Shown here: positions 7,796-53,380 of the stretch, piece after piece
Layout: each line of letters starts with the position of its first letter
Numbering within the stretch: position 1 is the first letter of the stretch
Notes under the pieces: model-generated
Seen by the model: only the letters and a program-made list of their open reading frames with translations
What the model was told of the DNA's origin: nothing
Database searches by the model: none
Position numbers and translations under genes: made by a program
Assembly: GCA_017416535.1 (NCBI GenBank)
Contig: JAFQCG010000001.1
Coordinates: forward strand, 139,013 to 203,012
Length of the DNA: 64,000 nt
Origin: Bacilli bacterium
Lineage (GTDB): Bacteria; Bacillota_I; Bacilli_A; RF39; UBA660
Direction of reading: 5' to 3'

Positions 7796-8896
7796 TTAGA
7801 CATTAAATCTAAAGTGACATATATCTCCATCTTGCATTAAGTAGTCTTTTCCTTCTAGTCTTGCTTTACCCGCTTCTTTTACTTTTAATTCACTTCCACA
7901 TTCTATTAAATCTTCGTATGACATAACTTCTGCTCTAATGAATCCTTTTTCAAAGTCAGTGTGAATAATTCCGGCGCATTGTTTTGCATTCATTCCTTTT
8001 TTGAATGTCCATGCTCTAACTTCATCTTTACCTACTGTGAAATATGTGGCTAGACCTAAAATGTCATATGTTGCTGTTATTAGCTTATCTAGCCCAGAAC
8101 CATCTAGTCCTAGCCCTTCTAGCATTTCTTGTTTATCTTCTTTTGATAACTCACTTAATTCTTCTTCTACTTTTGCACATAAACTAACTACCTTAGCATT
8201 CTCTTTTTCAGCATATTCTCTAACTTGCTTTACATAATCGTTATCGGGATTACCTAATTCATCTTCTTTGATATTTGCTAAATAAATAATTGGTTTTAGT
8301 GTTAAAAAGCTATATGATTTTAGTAATTTTAGCTCATCATCACTATATTCAACTTGGCGTAATGGTTTATTTTCTAAAAGTGCTGCTTTTGATTTTTCTA
8401 ATGCCTCTACTTCTGTTATATCATCTTTATTTTTTGTAGTTCTAGCTTTTTTAGCAACTCTTTCTAATCTATTATTAATAACATCTAAATCTGCTATTGC
8501 TAATTCAAGATTTATTGTTTCTATATCTCTAATTGGATCTGGTGCTCCATCTACGTGAATTATTTTTCCATCATCAAAACATCTTACTACTTCAACAATT
8601 GCATCGACTTCTCTTATGTGTGACAAAAACTTATTCCCTAAACCTTCTCCTTGTGATGCACCTTTTACTAATCCTGCTATATCAGTAAATTCATATGCTG
8701 TTGGGATGAATTTATTTGGTTCGTACATTTCATTTAATTTATCCATTCTTTCGTCTGGAACTGTTACTACTCCAACATTTGGTTCAATTGTTGCGAAAGG
8801 ATAATTTTCTGCTAATATCTTTTGATTTGTTATTGCGTTAAAAAGTGTTGATTTACCAACATTTGGTAATCCAACAATTCCTGCTGTTAAACTCAT
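7796..8896 (-). CDS. ychF: ribosome-binding ATPase YchF
   Basis: 366 aa, MSLTAGIVGLPNVGKSTLFNAIT G1 motif, C-terminal TGS domain. Confidence 0.9.
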   Translation of the reverse strand: MSLTAGIVGLPNVGKSTLFNAITNQKILAENYPFATIEPNVGVVTVPDERMDKLNEMYEPNKFIPTAYEFTDIAGLVKGASQGEGLGNKFLSHIREVDAIVEVVRCFDDGKIIHVDGAPDPIRDIETINLELAIADLDVINNRLERVAKKARTTKNKDDITEVEALEKSKAALLENKPLRQVEYSDDELKLLKSYSFLTLKPIIYLANIKEDELGNPDNDYVKQVREYAEKENAKVVSLCAKVEEELSELSKEDKQEMLEGLGLDGSGLDKLITATYDILGLATYFTVGKDEVRAWTFKKGMNAKQCAGIIHTDFEKGFIRAEVMSYEDLIECGSELKVKEAGKARLEGKDYLMQDGDICHFRFNV

Positions 8897-8931
8897 ATTT
8901 ATACCTCTTTTCTTTTTCCTTTTTTATTATA

Positions 8932-9519
8932 TCATAATTTCATTATTTCTTTAAATAGTGGGGATTGTAAAAATTTCTGAAATGACTTTATTTCTTGTTC
9001 TTTTTGTCTTTCTCGTTCTTGCTCTATTAATTCGTAACTTGGAAATAATGGTTGTTTTCTTTTTAAAAATGTTTTTCTTCGTGGATATTTATAGGATGAA
9101 GAGAATGTATTATAAAAACCTTGTTTACTAAAGAAATGTGTAGCATTACTTATACATTCTAATGTAATATCACAATCTTCTGATGATGCGTATAATTTTA
9201 TTTCATCCATTAATGTTTTACCATAACCTAATTTTTGTTTGTCTTTTCTAATTACAAATTGTCCAATATGATATGTGGTTTTATTTTGTCTAGATATTGA
9301 GGCATATCCAATAAAATCATTATTATCTTCTATAATTAATATTCTTGTTGAAAGGATTGAACCATCAATTACACCATTTATTATTTTTTCTTCTTCATAT
9401 ATTGATGGTTTTAAATCAGAATTTATTCCAATGCATCCAAAATCTTCAGAATTAAATAATTTTAAGTAATTACCTTTATCTTTTTCTTCGATAAGTCTTA
9501 TATTAACTTTTTTCTTCAT
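8932..9519 (-). CDS. GNAT family N-acetyltransferase with C-terminal extension
   Basis: 195 aa. Acetyl-CoA binding-like segment QFVIRKDKQKLGYGKTLM. Confidence 0.55.
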   Translation of the reverse strand: MKKKVNIRLIEEKDKGNYLKLFNSEDFGCIGINSDLKPSIYEEEKIINGVIDGSILSTRILIIEDNNDFIGYASISRQNKTTYHIGQFVIRKDKQKLGYGKTLMDEIKLYASSEDCDITLECISNATHFFSKQGFYNTFSSSYKYPRRKTFLKRKQPLFPSYELIEQERERQKEQEIKSFQKFLQSPLFKEIMKL

Positions 9520-9564
9520 AATATCCCTGCTTTTTGTGCTATATTATATCTTTTTTTCCTTTAT

Positions 9565-9590
9565 ATAGCAATAAAAAAACACCATATGGT
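9565..9590 (-). terminator. terminator downstream of the AbgT-family gene
   Basis: ACACCATATGGTGT hairpin flanked by A/T runs. Confidence 0.5.
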
Positions 9591-9591
9591 G

Positions 9592-11187
9592 TTAAATTGT
9601 TGGATACACTCCTGGTCCTATTGGAAGACCTACTATATACCATCCTACAATAAGTACTATCCAGACTGCTGCAATAAGCAAGAAATATGGTGTTATCATT
9701 TTTAATGATTTTCTTATTGTGATTGGTTTTTCCTTGTTTAAATTATATAAATTTAAATATCCTATATATATAACAAATGATGCTAGTAAAGGAGTAAATC
9801 CTTTTGTCATTGAATCTGCTGCACGCATTACTATTTGAGCAAATTCTGGAGATATATTTGATTGCATATATATTGGAACAACTACTGGTGAAAATAGAGC
9901 CCATTTACTAGATACACTTGTTAGTAATAATCCAGATAAAGCAATAATTACTAGTGTAAATATAATCAATATAATTCCATTCATTTCAATATATTCAAGT
10001 ATACTTACTAACCAAGTTGTAACTACTATTCCAATATTTGTTTTTTTATAAATTGCTACGAATTGAGATACCACAAACATAAGTATAAAAATTGGAGCAA
10101 TTTTTGATATCTTAGAACTCATTTTATCAATTAGATCTTTATCATTTTTTATTGATTTAGCACCAAATGCGTAGGCAAATCCTGTTACAATAAAGAATAA
10201 TGCAACTAGATAACTAAATCCATTTTGGAAATATGATTTTGGTCCAAATATTTGTTGTGAGTATATTTTCTCGCTCATATCTAACATCATACCTGAACCT
10301 GGTAATCCTGGAATTAATGCATATATAACAAATATAGAATAGATAATGCCTACTATTAATGCTGCTCTAATTCCTTTTTTCTCTCTTTTTTCTTTTTCAA
10401 TTTGTTTTTGTTCTTCTTCTTCAATACTTATAGGACTATATTGTTCTGTATTTGCAAATTCTTCTTCTTTTTTATATTTTCCTATTCTTGGGGCAATAAT
10501 ATTTTCAATTATTATTGTTCCTACTATTGATAACACAAGAGTTGCAGCTATTGAGAATATTAAGTTAGAACTTAGCGCTATATGCGCTGATTCATTAATC
10601 AGAATAGCGGCATTTTTTGTATATTCCATAAGCATTATTTCTTGAGTCCCTACAAATAATGATACTCCATATCCAAATGATACCCCGCAGAAAGCTGTTG
10701 CTATTCCAAGTAATGGATTTCTTTTATTTATAAAATATATTACAGCTACTAAAGGGATTAATAATGCATACCCTACTTCATTTACTATTGATGATGCTGA
10801 GGCTACGAATAATACAATAAATGTAAAAATGTGTCTTGGAATTTTAGATAAATATCTTTTTGTTACTGTTTCAATAAATCCTGTTGATTCTGCAAGGGAA
10901 AGGGCTATTACAGAAACAAGTAACATTCCCATTGGACCAAAACTTAAGAAGTTTTTAACTGCATTACTTACAATAAAACGCAATCCACTTAAACTAAATA
11001 AGTTTTCTACTGTTATTAATGTTGGCTCAAGATCTTTTGCATTTACATTTACTGAATTATATGTTGCTTGCATTTCAAATAGTGAAAATACTCCACTCAA
11101 TACAATTACTAATATTGATAATATTAAAAATGTTGTTATTGGGTGAAAATAAAACTTTTTTAATTTTAATTTTCTTTTATCGTTCAT
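9592..11187 (-). CDS. AbgT family (p-aminobenzoyl-glutamate-type) transporter
   Basis: 531 aa polytopic. N-terminal region ...LFSLSGLRFIVSNAVKNFLSFGPMGMLLVSV and C-terminal VGLPIGPGVYPTI closely match AbgT/MtrF family signatures. Confidence 0.7.
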   Translation of the reverse strand: MNDKRKLKLKKFYFHPITTFLILSILVIVLSGVFSLFEMQATYNSVNVNAKDLEPTLITVENLFSLSGLRFIVSNAVKNFLSFGPMGMLLVSVIALSLAESTGFIETVTKRYLSKIPRHIFTFIVLFVASASSIVNEVGYALLIPLVAVIYFINKRNPLLGIATAFCGVSFGYGVSLFVGTQEIMLMEYTKNAAILINESAHIALSSNLIFSIAATLVLSIVGTIIIENIIAPRIGKYKKEEEFANTEQYSPISIEEEEQKQIEKEKREKKGIRAALIVGIIYSIFVIYALIPGLPGSGMMLDMSEKIYSQQIFGPKSYFQNGFSYLVALFFIVTGFAYAFGAKSIKNDKDLIDKMSSKISKIAPIFILMFVVSQFVAIYKKTNIGIVVTTWLVSILEYIEMNGIILIIFTLVIIALSGLLLTSVSSKWALFSPVVVPIYMQSNISPEFAQIVMRAADSMTKGFTPLLASFVIYIGYLNLYNLNKEKPITIRKSLKMITPYFLLIAAVWIVLIVGWYIVGLPIGPGVYPTI

Positions 11188-11190
11188 ATA

Positions 11191-11388
11191 TTATCCTTCC
11201 TGTGAAATTATTTTTTTAACTTTCTTGTTAAATTCAATTCTAGGAATTAATATTGTTCTACCACAGTTTAAACATTTTATTTTTATATCAGCACCTAAAC
11301 GTGTGATTTCCCATTCATTAGCTCCACATGGGTGTTGTTTTTTCATAACCACTTTTGTTCCTAATTCATAATTTAAATTATTATCCAT
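11191..11388 (-). CDS. DUF951 family protein (yyzM-like)
   Basis: 65 aa, HPCGANEWEITRLGADIKIKCLNCGRTILIPR. A conserved small protein next to parB in Firmicutes. Confidence 0.7.
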   Translation of the reverse strand: MDNNLNYELGTKVVMKKQHPCGANEWEITRLGADIKIKCLNCGRTILIPRIEFNKKVKKIISQEG

Positions 11389-11444
11389 TGTACACCTCTA
11401 ATCGTTAAAATATAATTTCTACATAATATATAATTATTTAGAGA

Positions 11445-12341
11445 TTATCCTCTAGGAATTATATTCATTACTTCTAAAATTCTATTTAAATCACTTGCAT
11501 TGACAAAACTAATTTCAATTTTATTATTTTTTACTTTTACTTTTGTTCCTAGTTTTTCACACATTTCATCTTGAATATATTGATATTCATTAGTTGTATT
11601 TCCTACTCTTTTTATTTTATTTGTTCTTTCATATTGATCTGTAGAATTAGTTAATGATTCTAATTGTCTTACACTTAATCCTTCTTCTACTATTTTATTT
11701 GCTAGTTCTTTTTGTTGAACATTATTATCTAATTTACTAAGTACTCTAGCATGTCCCATAGTGATTTTTCTTTCACTAATTTGTTGTTGAATATCTTCTG
11801 GAAGAGATAATAAACCAAGCATATTTGTAATATGACTTCTACTCTTTCCTAATCTCTTAGCTAATTCTTCTTGTGTTAAAGCTAATGTTTCGATTAATTT
11901 CTTATAAGCTGTCGCTTCTTCCACTGCATTTAGATTTTCTCTTTGTAGATTTTCTAATAATGCAATTTCCATCATTTCTGTATCATTAAAATCTCTAATA
12001 ATAGCTGGAATTTCTTCTAATCCTGCTAAAATTGAAGCTTTTACACGACGTTCTCCAGCAATTATTTCATATCCTTTGATACTTTTTTTAATAATTATAG
12101 GTTGGAAAACACCATGCTCTTTTATTGATGCAGCTAATTCTTGTAGTGCTGATTCATCAAATACTTTTCTTGGCTGATATGGATTGCTTCTTAATTCAGA
12201 TAATTTTACTTTTACGATTTCTTCACTTGGAGTCTCAGTAATTATTTTTTCTTCTACTTTATCATAGGCAATTGGTTCATTGAAAAATAGCTCTTCTAGA
12301 CCTCTTCCTAAAGCTCTTCTTTTTGTATTATTTGTCTCCAT
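11445..12341 (-). CDS. parB: chromosome partitioning protein ParB (Spo0J)
   Basis: RRALGRGLEELF N-terminus, ParB box GERRVKAS, HTH, conserved C-terminus. ATG 12341 chosen (RBS AAGGAAGTGA upstream). Confidence 0.85.
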   Translation of the reverse strand: METNNTKRRALGRGLEELFFNEPIAYDKVEEKIITETPSEEIVKVKLSELRSNPYQPRKVFDESALQELAASIKEHGVFQPIIIKKSIKGYEIIAGERRVKASILAGLEEIPAIIRDFNDTEMMEIALLENLQRENLNAVEEATAYKKLIETLALTQEELAKRLGKSRSHITNMLGLLSLPEDIQQQISERKITMGHARVLSKLDNNVQQKELANKIVEEGLSVRQLESLTNSTDQYERTNKIKRVGNTTNEYQYIQDEMCEKLGTKVKVKNNKIEISFVNASDLNRILEVMNIIPRG

Positions 12342-13116
12342 TTCTTGCAATCACTTCCTTTGCTAAATTGATATATGCTTCAGATCCTCTACTTTTTGGA
12401 TCGTATGCTACAATTGGTTCCCCATGTGATGGAGCTTCTGTTAATCTTACTAGTCTTGGAATTATTGTGTTATAAACTTTTTCTTTAAAGAATTTTCTAA
12501 TGTCATCAACAACTTCAAATCCTAAATTTGTTCTTGAATCAAGCATTGTTAGTAATACTCCTTCAATATCTAATGTTGGATTTAATGTTTTTTGTGCTAG
12601 CATAATTGTTTTTAATAATTGTGTAATACCTTCTAATGCAAAGAATTCACATTGTACTGGAATGATTACTGAGTTTGATGCAGTTAGTGCATTTGTTGTA
12701 ATTATTCCTAGTGAAGGAGGACAATCTAAGATAATATAGTCGAAACTATCAATTATTTCAGCTAAATGAATTTTTAATTGTTCTCCTTTTAAAAATCCAT
12801 TTTCTCTATGACTTTTTTCTACTAGTTCAATATCCAATCCCGCTAAATTAATTGTTGCTGGTAATACGTATAAATTTTTATATTTTGTTTTAATCATTGC
12901 TTCTGTAATCTTACATTCTCCTATTAAAACATCATATACGCTTTTTTCAATATCACCTTTGTTGATTCCTACACCAGTAGTTGTATTTCCTTGAGGGTCT
13001 AAATCAATTAATAATACTTTCTTCCCTAATACTGCTAATGATGCAGAAAGATTGATACTTGTAGTTGTTTTACCAACTCCACCTTTTTGATTTACTAATG
13101 ATATAACCTTTCCCAT
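12328..13116 (-). CDS. parA: chromosome partitioning ATPase ParA (Soj)
   Basis: 262 aa, deviant Walker A KGGVGKTT, LIDLDPQGN. Confidence 0.9.
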   Translation of the reverse strand: MGKVISLVNQKGGVGKTTTSINLSASLAVLGKKVLLIDLDPQGNTTTGVGINKGDIEKSVYDVLIGECKITEAMIKTKYKNLYVLPATINLAGLDIELVEKSHRENGFLKGEQLKIHLAEIIDSFDYIILDCPPSLGIITTNALTASNSVIIPVQCEFFALEGITQLLKTIMLAQKTLNPTLDIEGVLLTMLDSRTNLGFEVVDDIRKFFKEKVYNTIIPRLVRLTEAPSHGEPIVAYDPKSRGSEAYINLAKEVIARNGDK

Positions 13117-15321: not shown

Positions 15322-17173
15322 TATATCCTCTTCTTAAGTAAACCATTAATATTGATATATCAGCTGGATTTACTCCACTTATTCTTGATGCTTGGCCTAT
15401 TGTTGTTGGAGATATTTCTGTTAATTTTTGTCTTGCTTCGCTTGCAAGATTAGGTATTTTTGAATAATCAATATCACTAGGAATTTGTTTTTCTTCTAAT
15501 GCTAACATTTTTTCTGCTTCTTTTAAGGACTTTTTGATATACCCTTCATATTTTATATTTATTTCAACTTGTTCTTTTACTTCTTTATCGTATGGAATTT
15601 CAATAAAATGTTCTAGATGTTCTAATTTAACTTCTGGTCTTTTTAAAAACTCATATAATGATATTCCTTCTTTTAATGCAGGTGTACCAATACTTTCTAC
15701 ATACTCATTTATTTCTTTTTTAGGAGTTATTCTTGTTTGCTTTAGCAATTCAAAAAACTCTTCAATATTTTGTTTTTTGTTATTAAATTCTTTATATTTC
15801 TCTTCTGAGATTAGACCTACTTGATATCCGTAGTCTCTTAGTCTTAAGTCTGCATTATCATTTCTTAGTAATAAACGATATTCTGCACGTGATGTAAGTA
15901 ATCTATATGGGTCTTTTACTCCTTTTGTTACTAAATCATCAATTAAAACTCCAATATAGGATTCATTTCTTTTTAAAATTAATGGGTCTTTTCCTTCTAA
16001 TTTTAATGCAGCATTAATTCCTGCAATTAATCCTTGTCCTGCTGCTTCTTCATATCCACTTGTACCATTGATTTGCCCTGCTGTATATAAACCTTCAATT
16101 AATTTAGTTTCTAAAGATTGTTTTAGTTGTCTTGAATCAATAGCATCATATTCAATTGCATATGCATATTTTAATATTTTTGCATTTTCTAACCCTGGTA
16201 AACTTCTTACCATTTTATCTTGAACATAGTGTGGCATACTTGTTGAAAATCCTTGAATATAAATATCATCATAGTATATACTTTCTGGTTCAAGGAATAG
16301 TTGATGTCTTTCTTTTTCTCCAAATCTTACTATTTTATCTTCTATTGATGGACAATATCTTGGACCTACTCCTTCTACATGTCCTCCATACATGCTAGAT
16401 TCATTTAAATGTTCTCTAATAATGTTATGTGTTTCTTCTGTTGTATATATTAAATGACATGGAATTTGATTATCTACATCATAATATACATTATTATCAA
16501 ATGAGAAAGTTCTTTCTACTGGATCACCAGGTTCTAGCGATGTTTTTGAGTAATCGATTGAATTTTTATCAATTCGTTGTGGTGTTCCTGTTTTTAATCT
16601 AAGTATTGTAAAACCTAATTCTTTTAAATGGTTACTTAAATATTTTGATTCTTCTTCACCATGTGGACCACCTGGTGTTTTATCTGCACCTATTAGTATG
16701 ACACTTCTTAAATATGTTCCTGTAGTTAAGATTACTGCTTTTGAATTAATTTTTGTTCCATCAGCTAGTTCTACACCTTGAATTTTATTACCTTCTACTA
16801 ATAATTTTTCGACCATAGCTTCTTTTATGTCTAAATTTTTAGTTGTTTCTAAAGTTTTAATCATTTCTTTTGGATATGTTATTTTATCCGCTTGGGCTCT
16901 TAAAGCTTGTACTGCTGGGCCTTTTTTTGTATTTAACATCTTTATTTGAAGTGCACCTTTATCTGCATTTCTTCCCATTTCTCCACCAAGTGCATCTATT
17001 TCTCTAACAACAATACCTTTTGCTGGACCACCAATAGATGGATTACATGGCATATCAGCTATATTTTTTTTATTTCCTGTTATTAGCAAGGTTTTATGTC
17101 CTTTTCTGGCACTAGCTAAACAAGCCTCACAACCAGCGTGACCTCCACCTACTACTATAATTTCGTACTCCAT
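15314..17173 (-). CDS. mnmG: tRNA uridine 5-carboxymethylaminomethyl modification enzyme MnmG (GidA)
   Basis: [20 protein letters not shown]-binding N-terminus. Roughly 620 aa. Confidence 0.9.
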
Positions 17174-30659: not shown

Positions 30660-30792
30660 GAAATTGTTAATAAGTTTAATATATATATAAAAATCCACTG
30701 TTTTTGTGTATAAATTTCTTTTTCTATAATAAATTTGAATCATTTAAAACTATTTACAAAATTATATTCTTATATTAAAATATATATCGTGC

Positions 30793-30866
30793 AATGGAAG
30801 TGTTTGAACCAGGTCAGGATCGGAAGGTAGCAGCCTTAAGGACCTCCTTCCATGTGCACTTTTTTA
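30793..30866 (+). ncRNA. ffs: signal recognition particle RNA (small, 4.5S-type)
   Basis: ACCAGGUCAGGAUCGGAAGGUAGCAGCCUUAAGG nearly matches the E. coli 4.5S domain IV (ACCAGGUCAGGUCCGGAAGGAAGCAGCCAAGG). It is enclosed by a 12-bp stem (GUGCAAUGGAAG / CUUCCAUGUGCAC) and followed by a U-run. In B. subtilis scr lies next to tadA-dnaX. Confidence 0.7.
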
Positions 30867-30879
30867 TTGGAGTGATTTT

Positions 30880-43853: not shown

Positions 43854-43881
43854 AATATTTTTAGGGAAAGTGAGGAATAAT

Positions 43882-44412
43882 ATGAAGTCAACAGGTGTTG
43901 TTAGAAGAGTAGATGATTTAGGAAGAATTGTTATTCCAAAAGAAATAAGAAGAACTCTTAGAATTAGAGATGGTGAAGAGTTAGAAATATTTGTAGATGA
44001 CGAAGCTATCATTTTAAAAAAATTTTCAAATGTCGCAGATTTAGGTGATGTATCAAAAAAAATTGTTGATGTTGTAAGTTCTTTTATTGGTAAGACTGTG
44101 TTAGTTACGGATAGAGATACATTTATTACTGGAAGTGGTGAGTTAAAGAAAAAATATTTAAATAAGGAGATATCTAGTTATATTGAAGATATTATGTCTA
44201 ATCGTAATGTTGTGGTTCAGAAGAATATTGGAAATATTCAGTTGGGTGATGTTTCTGGCGAAATGTATTCTTATATTATTAATCCTATTATTAGTTTTGG
44301 TGATGTCATTGGGTCTGTTATTGTGATATCTACTAGTAGTGATATTTCTGAATTTGATGTTACTATTACTGGAATGATTACACAATTTTTAGGAAAATAT
44401 GTTGAAGATTAA
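43882..44412 (+). CDS. spoVT: stage V sporulation protein T (AbrB-N domain + GAF-like domain)
   Basis: MKSTGVVRRVDDLGRIVIPKEIRRTLRIRDGEELEIFVD nearly matches B. subtilis SpoVT. The C-terminal domain is also conserved. Lies downstream of mfd, as in Bacillus. Confidence 0.8.
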   Translation: MKSTGVVRRVDDLGRIVIPKEIRRTLRIRDGEELEIFVDDEAIILKKFSNVADLGDVSKKIVDVVSSFIGKTVLVTDRDTFITGSGELKKKYLNKEISSYIEDIMSNRNVVVQKNIGNIQLGDVSGEMYSYIINPIISFGDVIGSVIVISTSSDISEFDVTITGMITQFLGKYVED

Positions 44413-44439: not shown

Positions 44440-44705
44440 ACTTTTTAAATGTGTTGATGAAGAGTCTATAGCAAAACGTTTATTTTTAGAGACCTCGGTT
44501 AGGTGAAAGCGAGGAATAGATTAAGTTATATGATATGGCTTCTGAACTACTATATCGATATGTAGGTATAGTCGTAGATAGGCGTTAACTATTTAAGTGT
44601 ATAATATCAAATTATTATGAAATAAGGTGGTACCGCGAAAATCTTCGTCCTTATGTCGTAATAATTTTTTTTTGATATTTAATATGATTAAAGGGAGTGA
44701 TTTTG
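44440..44705 (+). promoter_or_regulatory. putative T-box riboswitch leader of metS
   Basis: AAUAAGGUGGUACCGCG at 44621-44637 matches the T-box core AAUUAGGGUGGUACCGCG. About 250 nt of structured leader precede the aminoacyl-tRNA synthetase gene. The specifier and terminator were not resolved by eye. Confidence 0.55.
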
Positions 44706-46253
44706 ATGGCAGAAAAATATTATATTTCTACTGCAATTGCTTATACTTCAGGTAAACCTCATATTGGGAATACTTATGAGATTGTTTTAGCAGATGCAAT
44801 TGCGAGATGGAAAAGATTAAAAGGTTATGATGTTTATTTTCAAACTGGAACAGATGAACATGGTATTAAAATTGAGGAGAAAGCTGCAGCAGCTGGTGTT
44901 GAACCACAATCATTTGTTGATGATGTAGCTGGAGAAATTAAACGTATTTGGGATTTAATGAATACAAGTTATGATCGTTTTGTTAGAACTACTGATAAGC
45001 GACATAAAGAAGTTGTTCAACATATTTTTAAGAAAATGTATGATAAAGGAGATATTTACAAAGGTGAATACAAGGGACTTTATTGTACTCCTTGTGAATC
45101 TTTTTGGACTGAGTCTCAATTAGTTGATGGTAAGTGTCCTGATTGTGGAAGAGATGTTCATGAGCAAAGTGAGGAAGCATATTTCTTTAAATTAAGTAAT
45201 TATCAAGAAAAACTTGAAAAGTACATTGAGGAACATCCTGATTTTATTCAACCTGTGGCACGTAAGAATGAAATGTTAAATAACTTTATCAAACCTGGAC
45301 TACAAGATTTATGTGTTTCACGTACAACATTAAAATGGGGAATTCCAGTAGATTTTGATCCTAAGCATGTTGTATATGTCTGGCTAGATGCATTAACAAA
45401 TTATATTACTAATATAGGATATGATGTAGATAATGCAAATGAAGAATTTAAAAAACTTTGGCCAGCAGACTTACATTTGATTGGAAAAGATATTATTCGT
45501 TTCCATACTATCTATTGGCCTTGTTTCTTATGGTCTTTAGATTTAGAATTACCTAAGAAAGTTTTTGGACACCCTTGGTTATTAACTAGTAGTGATAAGA
45601 TGAGTAAGTCTAAAGGAAATGTTATTTATGCTGACGATTTAGTTGATAAGTTTGGATTAGATGCAGTTAGATTCTATTTATTACATGAAATTCCATTTGC
45701 AAGTGATGGTAATATTACTTATGATTTATTAATTGAAAGAGTTAATAGTGAGTTGGCAAATGTATTAGGTAATTTAGTTCAAAGAACTATTTCTATGGGA
45801 AATAAATATTTTGAGGGAAAAGTTACTAACAAGAAGGTTAATGGAGAAGTAGATGAGGTATTTATTAATAGTATTAATGAATTAGATGGTTTAGTTACTG
45901 CTAAAATGGATGAATTGCAAGTGGCTGATGCTATGACTGAAATCTTTAATGTTTTACGTGCTTCTAATAAGTATATTGATGATACTATGCCTTGGGCTTT
46001 AGCTAAAGATGAAACTCAACAAGATAGATTGGAAACTGTTTTATATAACTTACTTGAATCTATTAGAGTATGTGGTTCTATGTTAGAAGCATTTATGCCA
46101 GATACAAGTGCTAGTGTTTTAAGTCAAATTAATAGCACAGATAAATCTTATACATTTAATGAAAATAGTTCTTATGAATTAGGACAACCTAGTCCTTTGT
46201 TCCAAAGAATTGATCGTGATAAATTTATTGCAGAACATAATTTAGAAGTGTAA
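44706..46253 (+). CDS. metG: methionine--tRNA ligase (short form, no C-terminal tRNA-binding extension)
   Basis: HIGH-like PHIGNTYE, KMSKS, zinc knuckle CTPCESF...CPDCG. Confidence 0.9.
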   Translation: MAEKYYISTAIAYTSGKPHIGNTYEIVLADAIARWKRLKGYDVYFQTGTDEHGIKIEEKAAAAGVEPQSFVDDVAGEIKRIWDLMNTSYDRFVRTTDKRHKEVVQHIFKKMYDKGDIYKGEYKGLYCTPCESFWTESQLVDGKCPDCGRDVHEQSEEAYFFKLSNYQEKLEKYIEEHPDFIQPVARKNEMLNNFIKPGLQDLCVSRTTLKWGIPVDFDPKHVVYVWLDALTNYITNIGYDVDNANEEFKKLWPADLHLIGKDIIRFHTIYWPCFLWSLDLELPKKVFGHPWLLTSSDKMSKSKGNVIYADDLVDKFGLDAVRFYLLHEIPFASDGNITYDLLIERVNSELANVLGNLVQRTISMGNKYFEGKVTNKKVNGEVDEVFINSINELDGLVTAKMDELQVADAMTEIFNVLRASNKYIDDTMPWALAKDETQQDRLETVLYNLLESIRVCGSMLEAFMPDTSASVLSQINSTDKSYTFNENSSYELGQPSPLFQRIDRDKFIAEHNLEV

Positions 46254-46344: not shown

Positions 46345-46518
46345 ATGACTAATGAAAAAAGTAGTATATTGTCTGTAGATGTAGTTTATTTGGTTATTAT
46401 AATGTTACTTACATTATGTTTTTTGGGTGCAAAAAATGTTGTGGATTTACTTTTTTTGGTAGTAGTGACATTTTATTATATTAGAATTAAAGTTTATCGC
46501 TACCAAAAATACCATTAA
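46345..46518 (+). CDS. putative small membrane protein (57 aa)
   Basis: RBS GGAGG at 46336-46340, then ATG 46345. The product MTNEKSSILSVDVVYLVIIMLLTLCFLGAKNVVDLLFLVVVTFYYIRIKVYRYQKYH is hydrophobic. Below the ORF-track cutoff. Confidence 0.3.
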   Translation: MTNEKSSILSVDVVYLVIIMLLTLCFLGAKNVVDLLFLVVVTFYYIRIKVYRYQKYH

Positions 46519-46547
46519 TGTGGTATTTTTATTTTGGAGGTATTTTT

Positions 46548-47300
46548 ATGTTTATAGATACACATTGTCATTTGTCATATGAAGATTATGATGATATTGA
46601 TTTAGTAATAAAAGAGAATTGCAAAGCTAATGTTGAAAAAATTATTATTTCTGGTTGTAGCAAGGAATGGATTAGTGAATCATTAAAACTGGCAGATCTA
46701 TATGATGATGTATATGTAACTTTAGGTTATCATCCATCTGAGGTAGATGTTGTTACTGATGAAATGCTTAATGATTTAAAGAAACAATTAAAAAATAAAA
46801 AGGTTGTAGGATTAGGTGAAATAGGACTTGATTACTATTATGGTAAAGATAATAAGGAAAAACAACTAGAGTTATTTGAAAAACAACTTAAAATTGCTGA
46901 AGCTATGAATTTAAAAGTTGTTATTCATAGTAGAGATGCTACAGAGGATACAATTAATTGTTTAAAAAAGTATAATGTATCAGGAGTTATTCATTGTTTT
47001 AGTGGTAGTGTTGAAACTGCTAAAATATATGTTGCTATGGGATACAAATTAGGTATTGGTGGAGTTGTTACTTTTAAAAATAGTAAATTGTTTGAAGTTG
47101 TACAAGCTGTTGGATTAGAGAATATTGTATTGGAAACAGATGCTCCTTATTTAGCTCCTACTCCTTTTAGAGGACAAAAAAACAGTTCAAAGTTTATTCC
47201 AATAATTGCAGAAGAAATCGGAAAAATCTTGAATAAATCTGTGCAAGAAGTTGCATCTGTTACTACTAATAATGCTTATGAATTGTTTGACTTAAGATAG
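46548..47300 (+). CDS. tatD: TatD family metal-dependent DNase (YabD)
   Basis: MFIDTHCHL start with a GGAGG RBS. The upstream listed start is read-through. Confidence 0.85.
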   Translation: MFIDTHCHLSYEDYDDIDLVIKENCKANVEKIIISGCSKEWISESLKLADLYDDVYVTLGYHPSEVDVVTDEMLNDLKKQLKNKKVVGLGEIGLDYYYGKDNKEKQLELFEKQLKIAEAMNLKVVIHSRDATEDTINCLKKYNVSGVIHCFSGSVETAKIYVAMGYKLGIGGVVTFKNSKLFEVVQAVGLENIVLETDAPYLAPTPFRGQKNSSKFIPIIAEEIGKILNKSVQEVASVTTNNAYELFDLR

Positions 47301-47348: not shown

Positions 47349-47918
47349 GTGGGTAAGAAAACTGAAATATTTAAATATTATGTAGTTCCTATTTTTATTA
47401 TATTAGCAGTATTTGGATGTTGTACGTTTTATCTATTAGAAAATATTCCTCATTCTGAAGATGATTTAGATGTTAATTATTCAAGTAAAAAGATCATCAT
47501 TAATAATGATTTATTATTTAATGATGTTGTAGGTAAGAGTATTACTAAAGATAATTTAAAAGTTGGTACTACTGGGTATGTTGAATTTGAAGTAAGTTCA
47601 AAATTAGACGAAAAGGTAAAATATGAAGTTGTTCTTTCAAAAGAAGAAGCATCTCCTGAGATTCCTCTTGAATATGTAAAAGTGTATTTGACAGATGAAA
47701 ATGATAATCCATTATTAGATTCAAGTAATGGTAAAGTTTTATCTTATTTTGATTTAAAAGTTGCAGATAGTAATCTAAGTGGTAAATTGTTATATAGCGG
47801 TTATTTAAAAGATAAAGGCAGTAAGAAATTTAAATTGAGAATGTGGACTGCTGATACATATGAATTAACTGCAACAACAAGTATTTTCTCTGCGAAAATG
47901 GATGTTAATGTAAAATAG
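47349..47918 (+). CDS. secreted/anchored protein, paralog 1 of a tandem pair; candidate SipW-cognate substrate
   Basis: 189 aa from a GTG start with RBS GAAGGTGA. N-terminal K-rich n-region, then a hydrophobic core ending AVFGCCTFYLLE. Shares motifs with paralog 2 (EYVKVYL / KFKLRMWTADT). Confidence 0.5.
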   Translation: MGKKTEIFKYYVVPIFIILAVFGCCTFYLLENIPHSEDDLDVNYSSKKIIINNDLLFNDVVGKSITKDNLKVGTTGYVEFEVSSKLDEKVKYEVVLSKEEASPEIPLEYVKVYLTDENDNPLLDSSNGKVLSYFDLKVADSNLSGKLLYSGYLKDKGSKKFKLRMWTADTYELTATTSIFSAKMDVNVK

Positions 47919-47926
47919 GAGGATTT

Positions 47927-48526
47927 ATGGAAAATAAAAAGGGTGTTTCAAGAAAAATAATTATTATTTCATTTTGTATTGTAATATTGATTTTAGGTAT
48001 TATTGGTGGTGCTTTTTATATTCAAAAAAGTCAACCGGTTGATGTTATAGAGGAGACATTACCTGGAGGTAGTGTATCTCTTACATATACAGATGAAGAA
48101 AATTTGTTTGTTATAGAAAAGGCTATTCCTACTAGTGATGTTGTAGGAACTGCAAGTGATGCTGCAGAATTGTATTTTGATTTTACAGTAACAACTGATA
48201 TGGATGAAGCAAGTTTAATTAAATATTCTGTTTTGCTTGTTAAAGATGAAAGTGTTTCTACAGCTATTAATGAAAACATTAAAGTTTATTTAGAAAAACA
48301 AGTAGATGGTACATATAAAAAAGTTAGGGATCCAAAACTTTTTGAAAATAATTATAAAGATGAACAAATAGGTAATACTATTATGAAAATTCATGAACAA
48401 AAGAAGAGAGAATCTGGTAGTGATAATTATAGATTGAGAATATGGCTTTCTGATACTGCTGTTTTAGATTCTAAGGATAATCAAAATTTTGGTGTTAAAA
48501 TCGCAGTAGTGGGTACAGCTGAGTAG
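47927..48526 (+). CDS. secreted/anchored protein, paralog 2; candidate SipW-cognate substrate (TasA/camelysin-like role)
   Basis: 199 aa, RBS AGGAGG. Signal-like N-terminus ...ILGIIGGAFYIQ resembles the SipW-cognate TasA signal LVGGGTWAAFND. Shares IKVYLEKQ and NYRLRIWLSDT with paralog 1. Confidence 0.5.
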   Translation: MENKKGVSRKIIIISFCIVILILGIIGGAFYIQKSQPVDVIEETLPGGSVSLTYTDEENLFVIEKAIPTSDVVGTASDAAELYFDFTVTTDMDEASLIKYSVLLVKDESVSTAINENIKVYLEKQVDGTYKKVRDPKLFENNYKDEQIGNTIMKIHEQKKRESGSDNYRLRIWLSDTAVLDSKDNQNFGVKIAVVGTAE

Positions 48527-48534
48527 TAAATTTA

Positions 48535-48556
48535 AACGTGTAAAACACGTTTTTTT
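48535..48556 (+). terminator. rho-independent terminator after paralog 2
   Basis: AACGTGT-AAA-ACACGTT hairpin plus T6. Confidence 0.7.
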
Positions 48557-48622
48557 CTTTTGAAAATATAGTTTTTTAAATAGATTAGTATTATAATTAA
48601 TTTGAAGATCGGTGGTGATTAT

Positions 48623-49231
48623 ATGGCAAGGTCAAAATTAAATGAGAAAAAAGCTGGCTATTATACTAAGTTGTTTTTGCGTTCTTGTTTAGTTGCGGTA
48701 TTTGTTATTTTATTATCACTGTTTGGTATTATGGCTGTATGTTTTTGTGACTCTTTATATAATGAAAGTAAAGGAAATGATAAGAATCCTTTATTAAATG
48801 CTTATGTCATAGTGACTGAAAGTATGGTTCCTACAATTAAGGTAAATGATGCGATTGTTGTTAGCAGAGTAAAAAACAATTCTGTTAAGATTGGTGATGT
48901 AATAACTTTTTCATCTTCGGATAAGTACTTTAATGGATTAACAATTACTCATCGTGTTATTGGAAAAGAACTAAATGAAAGTGGTAATTATACTTATAGA
49001 ACAAAAGGAGATAATAATATTGTTGCTGATACAGCTTTAGTTAATGGAAATAAAATACATGGTAAGGTTTTATTTAAGATCCCTAAAATAGGATATATTT
49101 ATAATTTTATTTCTTCACCTAATGGTTTTATTTTTTCAATAGTTTTACCAGTATTATTGGTAATAGGATATGAGTGTTTTAGAATTTATAGAGTTATTAA
49201 ACAAAGATATCATGAAGTTGAAATATTATAA
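48623..49231 (+). CDS. sipW: signal peptidase I, SipW type (archaeal/ER-like, C-terminal TM anchor)
   Basis: Catalytic VTESMVPT (Ser), ITHRVIG (His), conserved TKGDNN, C-terminal TM FIFSIVLPVLLVIGY. ATG 48623 follows a GGTGGTGA RBS. Confidence 0.75.
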   Translation: MARSKLNEKKAGYYTKLFLRSCLVAVFVILLSLFGIMAVCFCDSLYNESKGNDKNPLLNAYVIVTESMVPTIKVNDAIVVSRVKNNSVKIGDVITFSSSDKYFNGLTITHRVIGKELNESGNYTYRTKGDNNIVADTALVNGNKIHGKVLFKIPKIGYIYNFISSPNGFIFSIVLPVLLVIGYECFRIYRVIKQRYHEVEIL

Positions 49232-49293
49232 GAAAAAAGGTACTATGCTTTTTTCTTTTTTTATATTATAATATGTGCGAAGTGGTGAGGAAT

Positions 49294-50094
49294 ATGGAAA
49301 AATATGATGTTAAATTTAAAAAGAAATTTGGACAAAATTTTTTAAAGGATGTTAATATCGTAAAACGTATAGTAAGTTGTGCTGGTATAGAAAGTAATTC
49401 TCTTGTAATTGAAGTAGGACCAGGTGGTGCTATTATGACTCGTGAACTTGCTAGTGTTGCTGATAATGTTCTTGCTTATGAAATTGATACTGATTTAGAA
49501 CTTGAACTATCTAAAAGATTGGAAAATTGTACTAATGTTGACGTGGTTTTTCAAGACTTTTTGACTTCTAATTTAATTGAAGATACGTCGAAATATAATT
49601 ATGAGCATTTATATTTTGTTAGTAATGTTCCTTATTATATAACTACACCTATTTTAATGAAACTTGTTGAAAGTGGATTAAAATTTGAAAAAATTGTAAT
49701 GATGGTTCAAAAAGAAGTTGGGGATAGGTTCTCTACTTCTAGTGGTAATAAAGAATATGGTTCTATTACCGTATTATTGAATTATTTCTATAATGTAAAA
49801 AAAGAATTTTTTGTTTCTAGAAAACAATTTGTTCCTGAACCTAATGTTGATAGTGTAATTGTTTCTTTTAGTGAGAAAAGTGAAAAATTACCTTTAAATG
49901 ATTTTAAGTTTTTTGAAAAAATTGTTAGAGATAGTTTTCAATATAAAAGAAAGAATTTACGTAATAATTTAAAAAATTATGATTTAGACATAGTATCTGA
50001 TGTTCTTCAAGAATATGGTTATGATCTGACTGTTAGGGCTGAAGCTTTAGATGTTAATGTCTTTGTAGATATTGCTAATGCATTAAAAAAATAA
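49294..50094 (+). CDS. rsmA: 16S rRNA (adenine1518/1519-N6)-dimethyltransferase RsmA (KsgA)
   Basis: FKKKFGQNFL, VIEVGPGGAIMT, and the NVPYYITTPIL-type motif. Confidence 0.9.
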   Translation: MEKYDVKFKKKFGQNFLKDVNIVKRIVSCAGIESNSLVIEVGPGGAIMTRELASVADNVLAYEIDTDLELELSKRLENCTNVDVVFQDFLTSNLIEDTSKYNYEHLYFVSNVPYYITTPILMKLVESGLKFEKIVMMVQKEVGDRFSTSSGNKEYGSITVLLNYFYNVKKEFFVSRKQFVPEPNVDSVIVSFSEKSEKLPLNDFKFFEKIVRDSFQYKRKNLRNNLKNYDLDIVSDVLQEYGYDLTVRAEALDVNVFVDIANALKK

Positions 50095-50105
50095 GTCATA
50101 ATGAC

Positions 50106-50669
50106 TTATTTTTTGTATATATATTTTCTTGTTCCATAATAACTTAGTGTTTCAATTGTTTCAGCGATTTCATTAATATCTGTTTCAAAATCATTTTGAA
50201 CCCAGAAGTTTATTACGCCGAGAGCTCCATTAAATATAAATATTGAGGCATATTCCATATCTGTTTCTTTTATATTAGGTAAATCTTTTTCCCATTTTTC
50301 TTTACATCGTGAATATGCAATTTCTAATATATTATTTAAGAAATATAACCCATTATTTGTATTAAATAGCATTTTTACTAACTCTTTATTATCTATAAAA
50401 ACTTCTAACATAGCTTTAGCAAAATTAATAACCGTATTTTCCGCTTCTGTTTTTGGTATATAAGCATTTTTTAGTTCTGTTTCAAATTCTTTTTTTATTG
50501 AATCTAATAAATTGTATACATCTAAATAATATCTATAAAATGTTGCGCGGTTTATGTCTGCTTTGGCACATATTTCACTTACTGTTATTTTTTTTATTTC
50601 CTTTTGTGATACTAATTCAATAAATGTATCTTTTATAACTTTTTTTGTATATTTTACTCTTCTGTCCAT
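50106..50669 (-). CDS. TetR/AcrR family transcriptional regulator
   Basis: 187 aa. N-terminal HTH ITVSEICAKADINRATFYRYY. Confidence 0.8.
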   Translation of the reverse strand: MDRRVKYTKKVIKDTFIELVSQKEIKKITVSEICAKADINRATFYRYYLDVYNLLDSIKKEFETELKNAYIPKTEAENTVINFAKAMLEVFIDNKELVKMLFNTNNGLYFLNNILEIAYSRCKEKWEKDLPNIKETDMEYASIFIFNGALGVINFWVQNDFETDINEIAETIETLSYYGTRKYIYKK

Positions 50670-50779
50670 AAAACCTCTTTTTTAAACATATTTTATTTAT
50701 TTGTTTAATAACTATCAATATTGTAATTTTTGATTATTGTAATGATTATATATTAATTATATAATACAATTGTAATATA

Positions 50780-50795
50780 TTCAACAAGTGTTGAA
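50780..50795. promoter_or_regulatory. candidate TetR operator: perfect palindrome TTCAACAAGTGTTGAA
   Basis: 7-bp inverted repeat with a 2-bp spacer, 17 bp upstream of the acyl-CoA ligase start, in the divergent TetR/ligase intergenic region. TTGTAAT direct repeats are nearby. Confidence 0.5.
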
Positions 50796-50811
50796 TAATA
50801 GAGGTGAAGAT

Positions 50812-52536
50812 ATGAAGATAATAGATAAAGTTATAAATAAAATAAAATATAAAAATCCATGGGATAAATTTTATGATAAAGATAAACGAACAATTGAAGT
50901 TCCAAATGTATCGGTTTATGAATATTTAAGAGATTGTAATAAGGATAATTTAGATTCAATAGCTATTAATTATTTTAATAAAAAAATGACTTATAGAACC
51001 TTTTTAAATGAAATTAATGTATGTGCTAGAGCTCTTAGAAGTCAAGGGATTCGTGAAGGTGATGTTGTTACAATTTGTATGCCTAATACACCTGAGGCTG
51101 TTATTGCATTTTATGCTACGAATGAAATTGGTGCTATTGCAAATATGGTTCATCCTCTTTCTGCAGAGGAAGAAATTAAACATTCTTTGATTAGTACAAA
51201 AAGTGTAATGCTTATAGCAATTAATTTGAGTTATAAGAAAGTAAAGGAAATTATTGAAGATACAGATGTATATAAAACAATTATTGTTTCTGCAAGTGAC
51301 TCTATGCCCACTTTATTAAAAATTGGATATAATCTTACATCTGGTAGAAAAATAGAAAAACCTAAAAAAAGTGAAACTTATATGTACTGGCATGATTTTA
51401 TTGAAAAAGGAAAACATTATTCCAACAAGGTACTAGTAAAAACTACTAAAGAACAACCTGCAGCTATTTTACATAGTGGTGGAACAACTGGAACACCTAA
51501 AAATATTGTTTTAACTAATGGTAATATTGTTGCTTTAGCAAAGCAAGCAACAATTATATTTCCTAAAATAGGTCCTGGCGATTCAATTTTAACTATTTTA
51601 CCATTATTCCATTGTTTTGGATTATGTGTGTGTGTAAATGCAGTTTTATGTTTAGGTGGTACTAATATATTGATTCCACAGTTTGATGCTAAAAGATTTG
51701 ATAAATTATTTTCTTCGTATCGTCCAACAATTGTAGCTGGTGTTCCAACTTTATATGAAGCATTACTTACAAATAAGCATATGGATAATATGAATTTGTC
51801 TTACGTTAAATATGTTATTTCTGGGGGAGACAGTTTAGTTCCAGAAAAGAATGAAGCTGTAAATAAGTTTTTTAGAAGACATGGAGCTAATATAAGTATT
51901 ATTCAAGGTTATGGTATGACTGAAACTGGTGGTCCAGTTTGTGCTCAAGTATTAGATGCTACAGTTCCAGGAAGTATTGGAATTCCTTTTCCAAGTAATG
52001 AAATTAAAATTGTAAATCCTGATACAAAAGAAGAAGTACCATATGGTGAAACTGGTGAAATTTGCATTCATAGTCCTGCAACAATGGCTGGTTATTTAGA
52101 TAATGAAAAAGAAACTAATGAGATTCTTCAAATGGATAAAAAAGGAAAAATTTGGGTACATACAGGTGATTTAGGATATATGACAGAGGATGGAATTGTA
52201 TTCTATGTATCACGTTTAAAACGTATGCTTATTGTATCTGGATATAATGTTTATCCATCTCATATCGAAAATGTTTTAATGAAACATCCTGATGTATTAA
52301 ATTGTGGTGTTATTGGTATTCCACATCCATATAAAGTTCAAGTTCCAAAAGCATATATTGTTTTAGATAATGGGGTAAAAGATAAGATGAAAGTTCGTAA
52401 TGATATTAAAGAATATTGTAAGAAAAACTTAGCAGCTTATATGGTTCCAAAAGAATTTGAATTTAGAGAAAGTTTACCAAAGACTATGATTGGTAAAGTT
52501 AATTATCGTGAATTAGAAAAAGAAAATAAAAAATAG
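50812..52536 (+). CDS. AMP-dependent synthetase/ligase (long-chain acyl-CoA synthetase-like)
   Basis: AMP-binding motif ILHSGGTTGTPKNIVLTNGN, plus GYGMTETGG and the C-terminal lysine region. ATG 50812 follows a GAGGTGA RBS. Confidence 0.8.
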   Translation: MKIIDKVINKIKYKNPWDKFYDKDKRTIEVPNVSVYEYLRDCNKDNLDSIAINYFNKKMTYRTFLNEINVCARALRSQGIREGDVVTICMPNTPEAVIAFYATNEIGAIANMVHPLSAEEEIKHSLISTKSVMLIAINLSYKKVKEIIEDTDVYKTIIVSASDSMPTLLKIGYNLTSGRKIEKPKKSETYMYWHDFIEKGKHYSNKVLVKTTKEQPAAILHSGGTTGTPKNIVLTNGNIVALAKQATIIFPKIGPGDSILTILPLFHCFGLCVCVNAVLCLGGTNILIPQFDAKRFDKLFSSYRPTIVAGVPTLYEALLTNKHMDNMNLSYVKYVISGGDSLVPEKNEAVNKFFRRHGANISIIQGYGMTETGGPVCAQVLDATVPGSIGIPFPSNEIKIVNPDTKEEVPYGETGEICIHSPATMAGYLDNEKETNEILQMDKKGKIWVHTGDLGYMTEDGIVFYVSRLKRMLIVSGYNVYPSHIENVLMKHPDVLNCGVIGIPHPYKVQVPKAYIVLDNGVKDKMKVRNDIKEYCKKNLAAYMVPKEFEFRESLPKTMIGKVNYRELEKENKK

Positions 52537-52609: not shown

Positions 52610-53380
52610 TTGTTTAAACTTGGAGATTTAGTAACTCGAATATCTCATAAGCATGATATAGTTTTTAAAATTGTTGGTTTAGATGGTAATACAGTTTTTT
52701 TAAAAGGAGTAGATCTTAGGCTTTATGCAGATAGTGATGTAAATGATTTAGTTGTTGTTAAGGAAATAGTTAATTCAGATAAGGATATAATTGATGCCAA
52801 CTTACGAGATATTAATTTAGATCGCAGTCAATATTTTTATTTACCAGGTAGAATTTTACATATTGATGGAGATAATGATTATTTAGAAAGATGTATGACT
52901 TTTTACCAAAATATGAATGTAAAGGCAAATGGAATTGCTTTACCAGAGTTTGAAATAGCAAGTAAAATCAATTCTTTATTAAATGAATATAAACCAGATA
53001 TTGTAGTTATTACTGGACATGATGCCTATTATGATAGAAAGAGAGATACCGCGGAAAAATATCAAAATACATATAATTTTATTGATGCTGTTAAACAGGC
53101 TAGAATATATGAAAAAAGTCAGGATAAATTAATAATAATTGCTGGTGCTTGTCAGTCTAATTATGAGGAACTTATTAAAGCTGGAGCTAATTTTGCATCT
53201 AGTCCTAAAAGAATTAATATACACGCACTAGATCCTGCAATTATTGCTTCTTCTTTATCGTTGTCGGATAAAAATCAAAGTATTGATGTTATTAAATTGA
53301 TAGAAAAAACGAAGTACGGAAGTGATGGAATTGGTGGAATTATAACAAATGGAACTATGTATGTGGGGTATCCTAGATGA
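52610..53380 (+). CDS. yabG: sporulation-specific protease YabG
   Basis: LGDLVTRISHKHDIVFKIVGLD, YLPGRILHIDGDNDYLERC, PDIVVITGHDAY and IIAGACQSNYEELIKAGANFASSPKRINIHALDP align with B. subtilis YabG. Confidence 0.8.
   Translation: MFKLGDLVTRISHKHDIVFKIVGLDGNTVFLKGVDLRLYADSDVNDLVVVKEIVNSDKDIIDANLRDINLDRSQYFYLPGRILHIDGDNDYLERCMTFYQNMNVKANGIALPEFEIASKINSLLNEYKPDIVVITGHDAYYDRKRDTAEKYQNTYNFIDAVKQARIYEKSQDKLIIIAGACQSNYEELIKAGANFASSPKRINIHALDPAIIASSLSLSDKNQSIDVIKLIEKTKYGSDGIGGIITNGTMYVGYPR

Follow-up and report, generated by a model that had tools for sequence, protein, structure and literature searches.

A three-gene cassette between tatD and rsmA

We investigated a 64,000-nucleotide stretch of contig JAFQCG010000001.1 from a Bacilli bacterium (the whole stretch is hereafter called the window), focusing on a cassette at 47349–49231 in which two genes for small proteins, here named P1 and P2, precede a signal peptidase gene (Table 1). 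The first-pass annotation of this DNA had described such a three-gene cassette between tatD and ksgA (rsmA), and both upstream open reading frames (ORFs), the terminator and the peptidase were confirmed. The three ORFs lie on one strand; P2 starts 8 nt past the P1 stop codon, behind an AGGAGG ribosome-binding site, and the spacer between P2 and the peptidase ORF as originally listed is 75 nt. That P1 and P2 are chance ORFs was ruled out, as both are conserved in more than 60 species. They are also paralogs, as had been proposed: BLASTP aligned them with 26% identity over 125 residues (E = 6e-9), and P1 matched a hidden Markov model (HMM) built on P2 homologs (2e-12).

Table 1. Positions in the window of the cassette and its flanking genes (family classes are described in the text).
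Feature	Position	Strand	Description
tatD (TatD_DNase)	46518–47300	+	left boundary of cassette, context only
P1	47349–47918	+	GTG start, 189 aa; class C family member
P2	47927–48526	+	199 aa; class B family member
Intrinsic-terminator-like hairpin and T run	48534–48562	+	between P2 and peptidase gene
S26B SipW-like signal peptidase I	48623–49231	+	202 aa from ATG 48623
rsmA/ksgA	49273–50094	+	right boundary of cassette, context only

Judged by its profile scores and motifs, the third gene encodes a signal peptidase I of the endoplasmic reticulum (ER)/archaeal type (MEROPS S26B), which is of the SipW kind, as the first-pass annotation had it, and is not an ortholog-level match to Bacillus SipW. 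The protein scored 91.9 bits on TIGR02228 (cut-off 51.85), with the peptidases of related loci at 79–110 bits, whereas on the Bacillus SipW equivalog model NF046067 it remained below threshold (85.3 bits versus a cut-off of 190). The catalytic Ser (48821–48823, in SMVP), His (48950–48952, in THR) and Asp (49010–49012, in GDNN) are retained, and 65 of 66 related peptidases keep the SMxP, THR and GDNN motifs. A Ser-His dyad, rather than Ser-Lys, marks the ER-type signal peptidases (PMC10269814). Hydrophobic segments are found at both the N- and C-terminal ends. The ORF as listed runs from TTG 48602 to 49231, but a Shine-Dalgarno sequence (GGTGGTGA) precedes ATG 48623 and public gene calls on window-identical contigs give a protein of 202 aa; the true start is therefore most likely ATG 48623.

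P1 starts with a basic n-region, which precedes a hydrophobic segment (residues 10–30; 47376–47438) and a beta-rich domain with an F-K-L-R-M-W motif at 47829–47846. In P2, the n-region MENKKGVSRK is followed by a hydrophobic segment at residues 11–32 (47957–48022), a linker modeled with low confidence and a jelly-roll at residues 48–198 (48068–48520). The hydrophobic segments end in ...FGCCTFYLL in P1 and ...IGGAFYIQ in P2. These G-G/C-x-F-Y strings had been likened to a SipW-cognate signal; they are present in both proteins, but P1 has no plausible cleavage site and that of P2 is degenerate. Because no small-x-small site was found in the N-terminus of P1, this protein is probably an uncleaved N-in/C-out anchor. 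P2 carries what looks like a relic TasA-like site, I-G-G↓A-F-Y, with the G28/A29 boundary at 48010/48011 (cleavage positions P1 Gly, P1' Ala and P2' Phe), and from this site we put the odds that P2 of the window is still cleaved at about even. An anti-sigma-like regulator was also considered for these proteins and rejected, as only ~10 residues would be cytoplasmic and a Sigma_reg_N match at E = 0.84 is meaningless.

The terminator-like element between P2 and the peptidase gene consists of a hairpin at 48534–48552 (AAACGTG-TAA-AACACGTTT) followed by a T run. With a lenient search, a similar stem-loop and T run was detected between the last structural gene and the peptidase gene in 58 of 66 related loci, many of which share a similar stem and loop (...AAGTG-TAAAG-CACTT...). 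Across L007–L073 and the window, the stem and loop follow ...[AC]GTG-T[AC]AAG-CAC[GT]..., a conservation exceeding the needs of a plain terminator, and the hairpin might thus also be a regulatory or RNA-stabilizing element. The 48-nt gap between tatD and P1 contains no terminator, so that P1 and P2 may be co-transcribed with upstream genes. In the sipW-bsaA operon of Clostridium perfringens, a terminator follows the structural gene, which is highly expressed, and later genes are reached by read-through (PMC7395162). By analogy, the terminator in the cassette would allow high expression of the structural genes and lower expression of the peptidase through read-through.

Conservation of the cassette in gut Bacilli

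We searched one genome per GTDB species with a 10-sequence profile, which yielded 67 loci, and all ORFs of these loci were searched with HMMs for the family of P1 and P2 and for the peptidase. All loci came from metagenome-assembled genomes (MAGs) of uncultured 'Bacilli / Tenericutes / Mollicutes / Erysipelotrichaceae' from human, ruminant, rabbit, mouse and deer guts. In 62 of the 63 loci with a sufficiently long contig, an array of two to four family genes in tandem was followed directly by an S26B gene; L071 was the sole true exception, and the remaining four loci end too soon to judge. Such a neighborhood of signal peptidase I and paralogs is a hallmark of the TasA superfamily, the genes of which typically adjoin both (PMC12518558). 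The adjacency of the peptidase gene has been kept while P2 diverged to ~30% identity, that is, the linkage is maintained under selection.

The cassette had been described as inserted; it is not a recent insertion. tatD lies immediately 5' of it in 59 of 62 related species loci and rsmA lies 3' in 52 of 54, and the surrounding order (mfd-spoVT-metG ... yabG-veg-spoVG-yabP) is shared as well. In the window, base composition and skew are flat over the cassette (GC 0.25–0.30). The flat composition and the conserved position between tatD and rsmA indicate that the cassette is old in the lineage and rule out a recent mobile insertion. It is an ancient, lineage-wide feature, common to ~60 species-level genomes of uncultured gut Bacilli, which are apparently spore-forming.

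The cassette genes fall into three classes. In class A, the tandem copies are near-identical and show a perfect S-F-A-A-F site (L060, L066, L070, L072 and L076), a pattern typical of abundant major structural subunits. Class B, the P2 type, has an invariant D-N-Y-R-L-R-x-W motif (48422–48445 in P2) and an S-F-A-T-F site in L004, L045 and L052. Members of class C (the P1 type) invariably open the cassette and lack a site. The cassette of the window is a reduced form with the order C-B-peptidase, as in 48 other loci, and the motif [GA]-[GA]-A-F-Y-I is kept among these two-gene cassettes only in the window's own clade (L005, L007–L011). Expanded cassettes in relatives contain 3–4 tandem paralogs and three further membrane proteins. 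In these (L004, 8058–9736; L076, 7184–8855; also L045 and L072), the three additional genes lie 3' of the peptidase gene and encode a divergent family member (~170–180 aa), a ~230-aa protein with a single transmembrane segment and a ~145–167-aa protein with four. A Pfam scan of these extra genes and of the class A proteins gave no match. The extra genes may encode assembly or anchoring factors that were lost from the reduced cassette of the window.

The protein family of P1 and P2

Homolog searches recovered 109 relatives for P2 and 33 for P1, all without a Pfam domain; the sole names attached to them were 'hypothetical protein' from 'Bacilli bacterium' MAGs. When a profile of 41 P2 homologs was compared with 1.84 billion cluster representatives (50% identity clusters), the family comprised 2,402 clusters at E ≤ 1e-3, of which 1,091 also passed E ≤ 1e-10. 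No Pfam or NCBIfam model exists for it, in agreement with the earlier suggestion that the upstream genes represent a new family, and our literature searches turned up no description of it. Searching PDB sequences with the family profile gave chance matches only. In the surveyed genomes, the family was found in uncultured Bacilli from the guts of humans, ruminants, rabbits and mice. AlphaFold2 models of P2 and of a relative, P0095, were confident (predicted local distance difference test, 86.9 and 86.6, respectively), and in both, a helix at the N-terminus and a linker of low confidence precede a compact beta-sandwich of 9–10 strands and ~150 residues.

The same module also occurs in long forms of 330–1,743 aa, where it occupies the extreme N-terminus, ahead of Big_2, Listeria-Bacteroides repeat (Flg_new), BspA-type LRR_5 or DUF6273 domains. 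None of the 36 long forms checked has an LPXTG motif or a C-terminal transmembrane segment. The basic n-region and the fusion to extracellular domain families place the module outside the membrane (N-in/C-out), and the contrary possibility raised with the first-pass annotation, an anchor bearing a cytoplasmic domain, is therefore not supported. Within the 64-kb window, we found no long form, additional family member or additional S26B gene. In L079, two divergent family members (187 and 191 aa; 15878–17080) are located just 3' of a 1,743-aa long-form adhesin, one of them with the N-terminus ...SSFALFTYFGEG...TTGTLVLNL; no peptidase gene lies within 10 kb.

A TasA-like signature at the end of the hydrophobic segment

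Among 290 fetched members, 64 have a hydrophobic segment ending in [ST]-[YF]-A-[AVIT]-[FY]; these include 28 of the 36 long forms, in which the motif is present in its strict form. We aligned the 64 members without gaps, anchored on the motif, and inspected the positions not used for selection. Conservation at fixed spacing was found for Gly at P5 (60/64), Gly at P8' (59/64) and Asn at P12' (61/64), together with Tyr or Phe at P4'. The conserved segment after the site comprises 17 residues (A-F-[ST]-[YF]-[ST]-x-x-G-x-x-x-N-x-I-x-T-G), and downstream of the P12' Asn, motif-bearing members continue with I-x-T-G-T-I-x-M-x-Y-x-E. The site of TasA reads ...G-G-G-T-W-A↓A-F-N-D..., followed by ...T-F-A-S-G-T-L-D-L, and its mature AFND terminus was checked against PDB 8aur. 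The family motif, G-x-[ST]-[YF]-A↓[AV]-F, matches the TasA pattern at P5, P3, P2, P1, P1' and P2'. With its aromatic P2 Trp and P2' Phe, TasA is a poor substrate of LepB, a P-type peptidase, and its site is cleaved by the ER-type SipW (PMC10269814). The proposed SipW-cognate-like signal thus has a counterpart in the wider family, where a TasA-type signature is found, but the dedicated model TIGR04088 does not recognize it, P1 has none and P2 has only the relic.

Profile comparison of the family (237 sequences) with 116 TasA-family proteins of PF12389 by hhalign gave P = 3.9e-4 and a probability of 35%, confined to the N-terminal 61 columns; a reversed-sequence control gave P~0.49. The aligned region covers the signal and 'G-x-I-x-M-x-Y...N-x-I-x-I-x-N-A-x-P' against 'G-T-L-D-L...F-d-L-s-N-l-K-P-G'. 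In a Foldseek search with the P0095 model, the top PDB match was the TasA fiber 8aur_A, at a marginal level (E = 3.2e-4; template modeling score, 0.35), and AbpA ranked 29th. A jelly-roll as anticipated for the paralogs was obtained in the models of P2 and P0095, with the TasA fiber as a marginal best match for the latter, but the expected donor strand was not seen in the post-signal segment. The layout and functional signature are as in TasA, whereas homology to TasA is not established.

Interpretation and alternatives

With a probability of roughly 0.55, we interpret the cassette as the reduced core of a TasA-like, SipW-dependent system for cell-surface fibers or adhesin display, built from a new protein family; its cleavage and polymerization steps are inferred. 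Members of the family would be exported through Sec in the N-in/C-out orientation. Those with the G-x-[ST]-[YF]-A↓[AV]-F motif would then, by analogy with TasA, be cleaved by the cassette peptidase at a type of site that a P-type peptidase handles poorly. The freed 17-residue N-terminal segment could act as a donor or docking strand, so that subunits and adhesins would join on the surface in the manner of TasA. In the window, P1 would stay anchored in the membrane and P2 would be either cleaved at the relic site or anchored as well, and such anchored copies may provide a cell-bound base or acceptor. A more specific version, in which anchored P1 and P2 form the base of a chaperone-free strand-exchange filament, SipW-cleaved subunits and large adhesins plug in, and leucine-rich repeat, Big_2 and Listeria-Bacteroides repeat domains are displayed without sortase, is speculative and, in our estimation, rather unlikely to hold in full.

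Several observations weigh against a TasA-like system, and some of them fit another explanation. P1 and P2 matched no Pfam or NCBIfam model at E ≤ 1, including TIGR04088, TIGR04089/90 and PF12389 (Peptidase_M73), so the assignment to TasA/Peptidase_M73 or to the SipW-cognate signal model that had been envisaged failed; the profile match to PF12389 is N-terminal only. TIGR04088 also failed on 10 wider family members (best, 10.3 bits, E = 0.64, versus a cut-off of 19). With the signals removed, the hhalign comparison fell to P = 0.046, and global alignment failed. The post-signal segment was modeled as helix and disorder, not strand, in the P2 and P0095 monomers. In the 49 two-gene cassettes, the window's included, P1-type and most P2-type N-termini look anchor-like, with 18–30 uncharged residues followed at once by charged ones and no small-x-small site, and the genes next to the peptidase may therefore not be its substrates. 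All linked loci are at one syntenic position; the linkage is thus one inherited and maintained event rather than many independent associations. Long forms are encoded elsewhere in the genome without a neighboring peptidase; the proposed linkage to a sipW-type gene was borne out for the cassette paralogs (62 of 63 loci). A search for P-type peptidases with a B. subtilis SipS query covered 1.19 Mb of related loci and returned just weak matches to S26B genes and one other weak match; as nearly all of these loci represent the same neighborhood, this result says little about P-type enzymes in the genomes as a whole.

P1 and P2 could accordingly be plain N-terminally anchored monomers, such as cell-wall- or glycan-binding jelly-rolls, that are never cleaved, while the S26B enzyme serves general or other substrates and its adjacency is inherited synteny. 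The anchor-like N-termini of the two-gene cassettes and the single position of all linked loci favor this explanation, as does the failure to find a P-type peptidase in the loci searched, and an uncleaved transmembrane segment would explain how the long forms, which have no other anchor, are attached. We nevertheless consider it improbable, although it is the alternative that we take most seriously. Plain anchors need neither a conserved G-x-[ST]-[YF]-A-[AV]-F end nor a 17-residue segment at fixed spacing, which suggests that the signature represents a cleavage site and a functional mature N-terminus; moreover, the signature equals the SipW-dependent site of TasA. The near-identical tandem class A copies in L060, L066, L072 and L076 are typical of abundant structural subunits, and the peptidase gene stays adjacent even at ~30% P2 identity.

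A role in sporulation, with the products being coat, crust or appendage proteins processed by the peptidase during spore formation, is suggested by the window's neighbors spoVT (43870–44412) and yabG (52610–53380) and, in related loci, by veg, spoVG, yabP and yabQ. The adjacency says little, however, because metG-tatD-...-rsmA-yabG-veg, as in Bacillus subtilis, is a housekeeping neighborhood widely conserved among Firmicutes. We identified no sporulation promoter, and the adhesin-type fusions (LRR_5, Big_2 and Flg_new) point to the vegetative cell surface. Even though TasA itself was first described as spore coat-associated (CotN; PMC9674648), we regard a spore function as quite improbable. 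Type IV pilin-like or sortase-dependent pilus subunits were rejected as close to inconceivable, despite the small size and tandem arrangement of the paralogs, their hydrophobic N-terminal segment and a sortase gene near the cassette in one relative (L005), as their defining signals are absent: the N-termini of P1 and P2 have no class III signal (G↓F/M-x-x-x-E), their C-termini, like the 36 long forms, have no LPXTG sorting signal, and the cassette encodes neither a prepilin peptidase nor an assembly ATPase. In addition, S26 signal peptidases cleave after the hydrophobic core, not before it.

Comparison with known systems

A close counterpart of the proposed TasA-like system is tapA-sipW-tasA of B. 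subtilis, with CalY/camelysin and sipW in Bacillus cereus. Motif-bearing family members share with TasA the length (~21 residues) of the hydrophobic core and the layout of the signal (P5 Gly, P3 Ser/Thr, P2 aromatic, P1 Ala and P2' Phe). They also have a conserved mature N-terminal segment that precedes a G-T-x-x-L/M strand, and the predicted fold is a jelly-roll. Conversely, sequence homology was not detected past the N-terminal ~60 columns, PF12389 and TIGR04088 do not apply, and the domain is much smaller (~150 versus ~230 residues in TasA). Unlike in tapA-sipW-tasA, the peptidase gene stands at the end, behind the structural genes and a terminator, and the enzyme is not a Bacillus SipW equivalog (~85 bits versus 190). 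Unlike TasA, the new module also heads large adhesins, and the cleavage motif is lost or degraded in P1 and P2 of the window.

In sipW-bsaABC(RSD) of C. perfringens, SipW is likewise encoded with several small secreted paralog-like proteins, and a terminator inside the operon likewise accompanies high structural-gene expression and read-through (PMC7395162). The major Bsa protein polymerizes extracellularly only when SipW is present (PMC7395162), and BsaA polymers are reported to be joined by intermolecular isopeptide bonds (PMC11580942). The Bsa proteins belong to another family and their operon includes a two-component system. Archaeal filaments of the TasA superfamily (AbpA, AbpX and CanX cannulae) are also very divergent jelly-rolls that require sensitive profile or fold comparison, and their genes often adjoin a signal peptidase I gene and paralogs, as here. 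They assemble by N-terminal donor strands (PMC9245690, PMC12518558). Their hosts are archaea and their filaments were seen by cryo-electron microscopy; neither adhesin fusions nor membrane-anchored paralogs have been described for them. As a functional analogy only, the chaperone-usher adhesins FimH and PapG combine a pilin-type beta-sandwich with an adhesin and plug in by strand complementation, but their fold family, secretion route and envelope are unrelated, and here the module is N-terminal, with neither a chaperone nor an usher.

Systems in which an ER-type peptidase is dedicated to cognate surface proteins with a beta-sandwich are already known (TasA, CalY, BsaA and archaeal AbpX). What appears to be new is the protein family, its size and its occurrence, in the surveyed genomes, only in uncultured gut Bacilli, and likewise the use of an N-terminal module in large adhesins and the mix of anchor-like and putatively cleavable paralogs. 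Known cases come from a small number of cultured Firmicutes and from certain archaea, and their logic recurs here in an unrelated-looking compact family that spans at least 2,402 clusters at 50% identity, and its module is the only possible attachment element of many large adhesins. If correct, the proposed system would explain how adhesins are anchored and displayed in these organisms, would extend the donor-strand filament class by a new branch and would offer a sequence pattern, [ST]-[YF]-A↓[AV]-F, by which substrates of such peptidases could be recognized.

Other features of the window and related loci

A T-box leader (Rfam RF00230, 113 bits) is located at 44445–44655 (+), immediately 5' of metG (44697–46253), and a bacterial small signal recognition particle RNA (RF00169, 56.7 bits) at 30783–30868 (+). 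Between metG and tatD, a hydrophobic 57-aa ORF (46345–46518, +) probably encodes a real small membrane protein; a 57-aa gene is called at the matching place in L004 and in the window-identical contigs L083–L086. Between rsmA and yabG, the window contains a TetR regulator (minus strand) and an AMP-binding acyl-CoA-ligase-like gene (50106–52536). yabG encodes a Peptidase_U57 protein, and in L004 and L076 it is directly preceded by rsmA, so that the TetR/AMP-binding pair, not the peptidase cassette, is the more recent local insertion. In L005, a sortase-like gene and a gene for a 1,038-aa protein lie directly 3' of rsmA (8312–12590), with nothing comparable in the window. Finally, two loci from MAGs titled 'uncultured Muribaculaceae bacterium' carry the Bacilli-type cassette, one with tatD upstream and rsmA downstream (L033) and the other with rsmA downstream (L069); both are probably mis-binned contigs.

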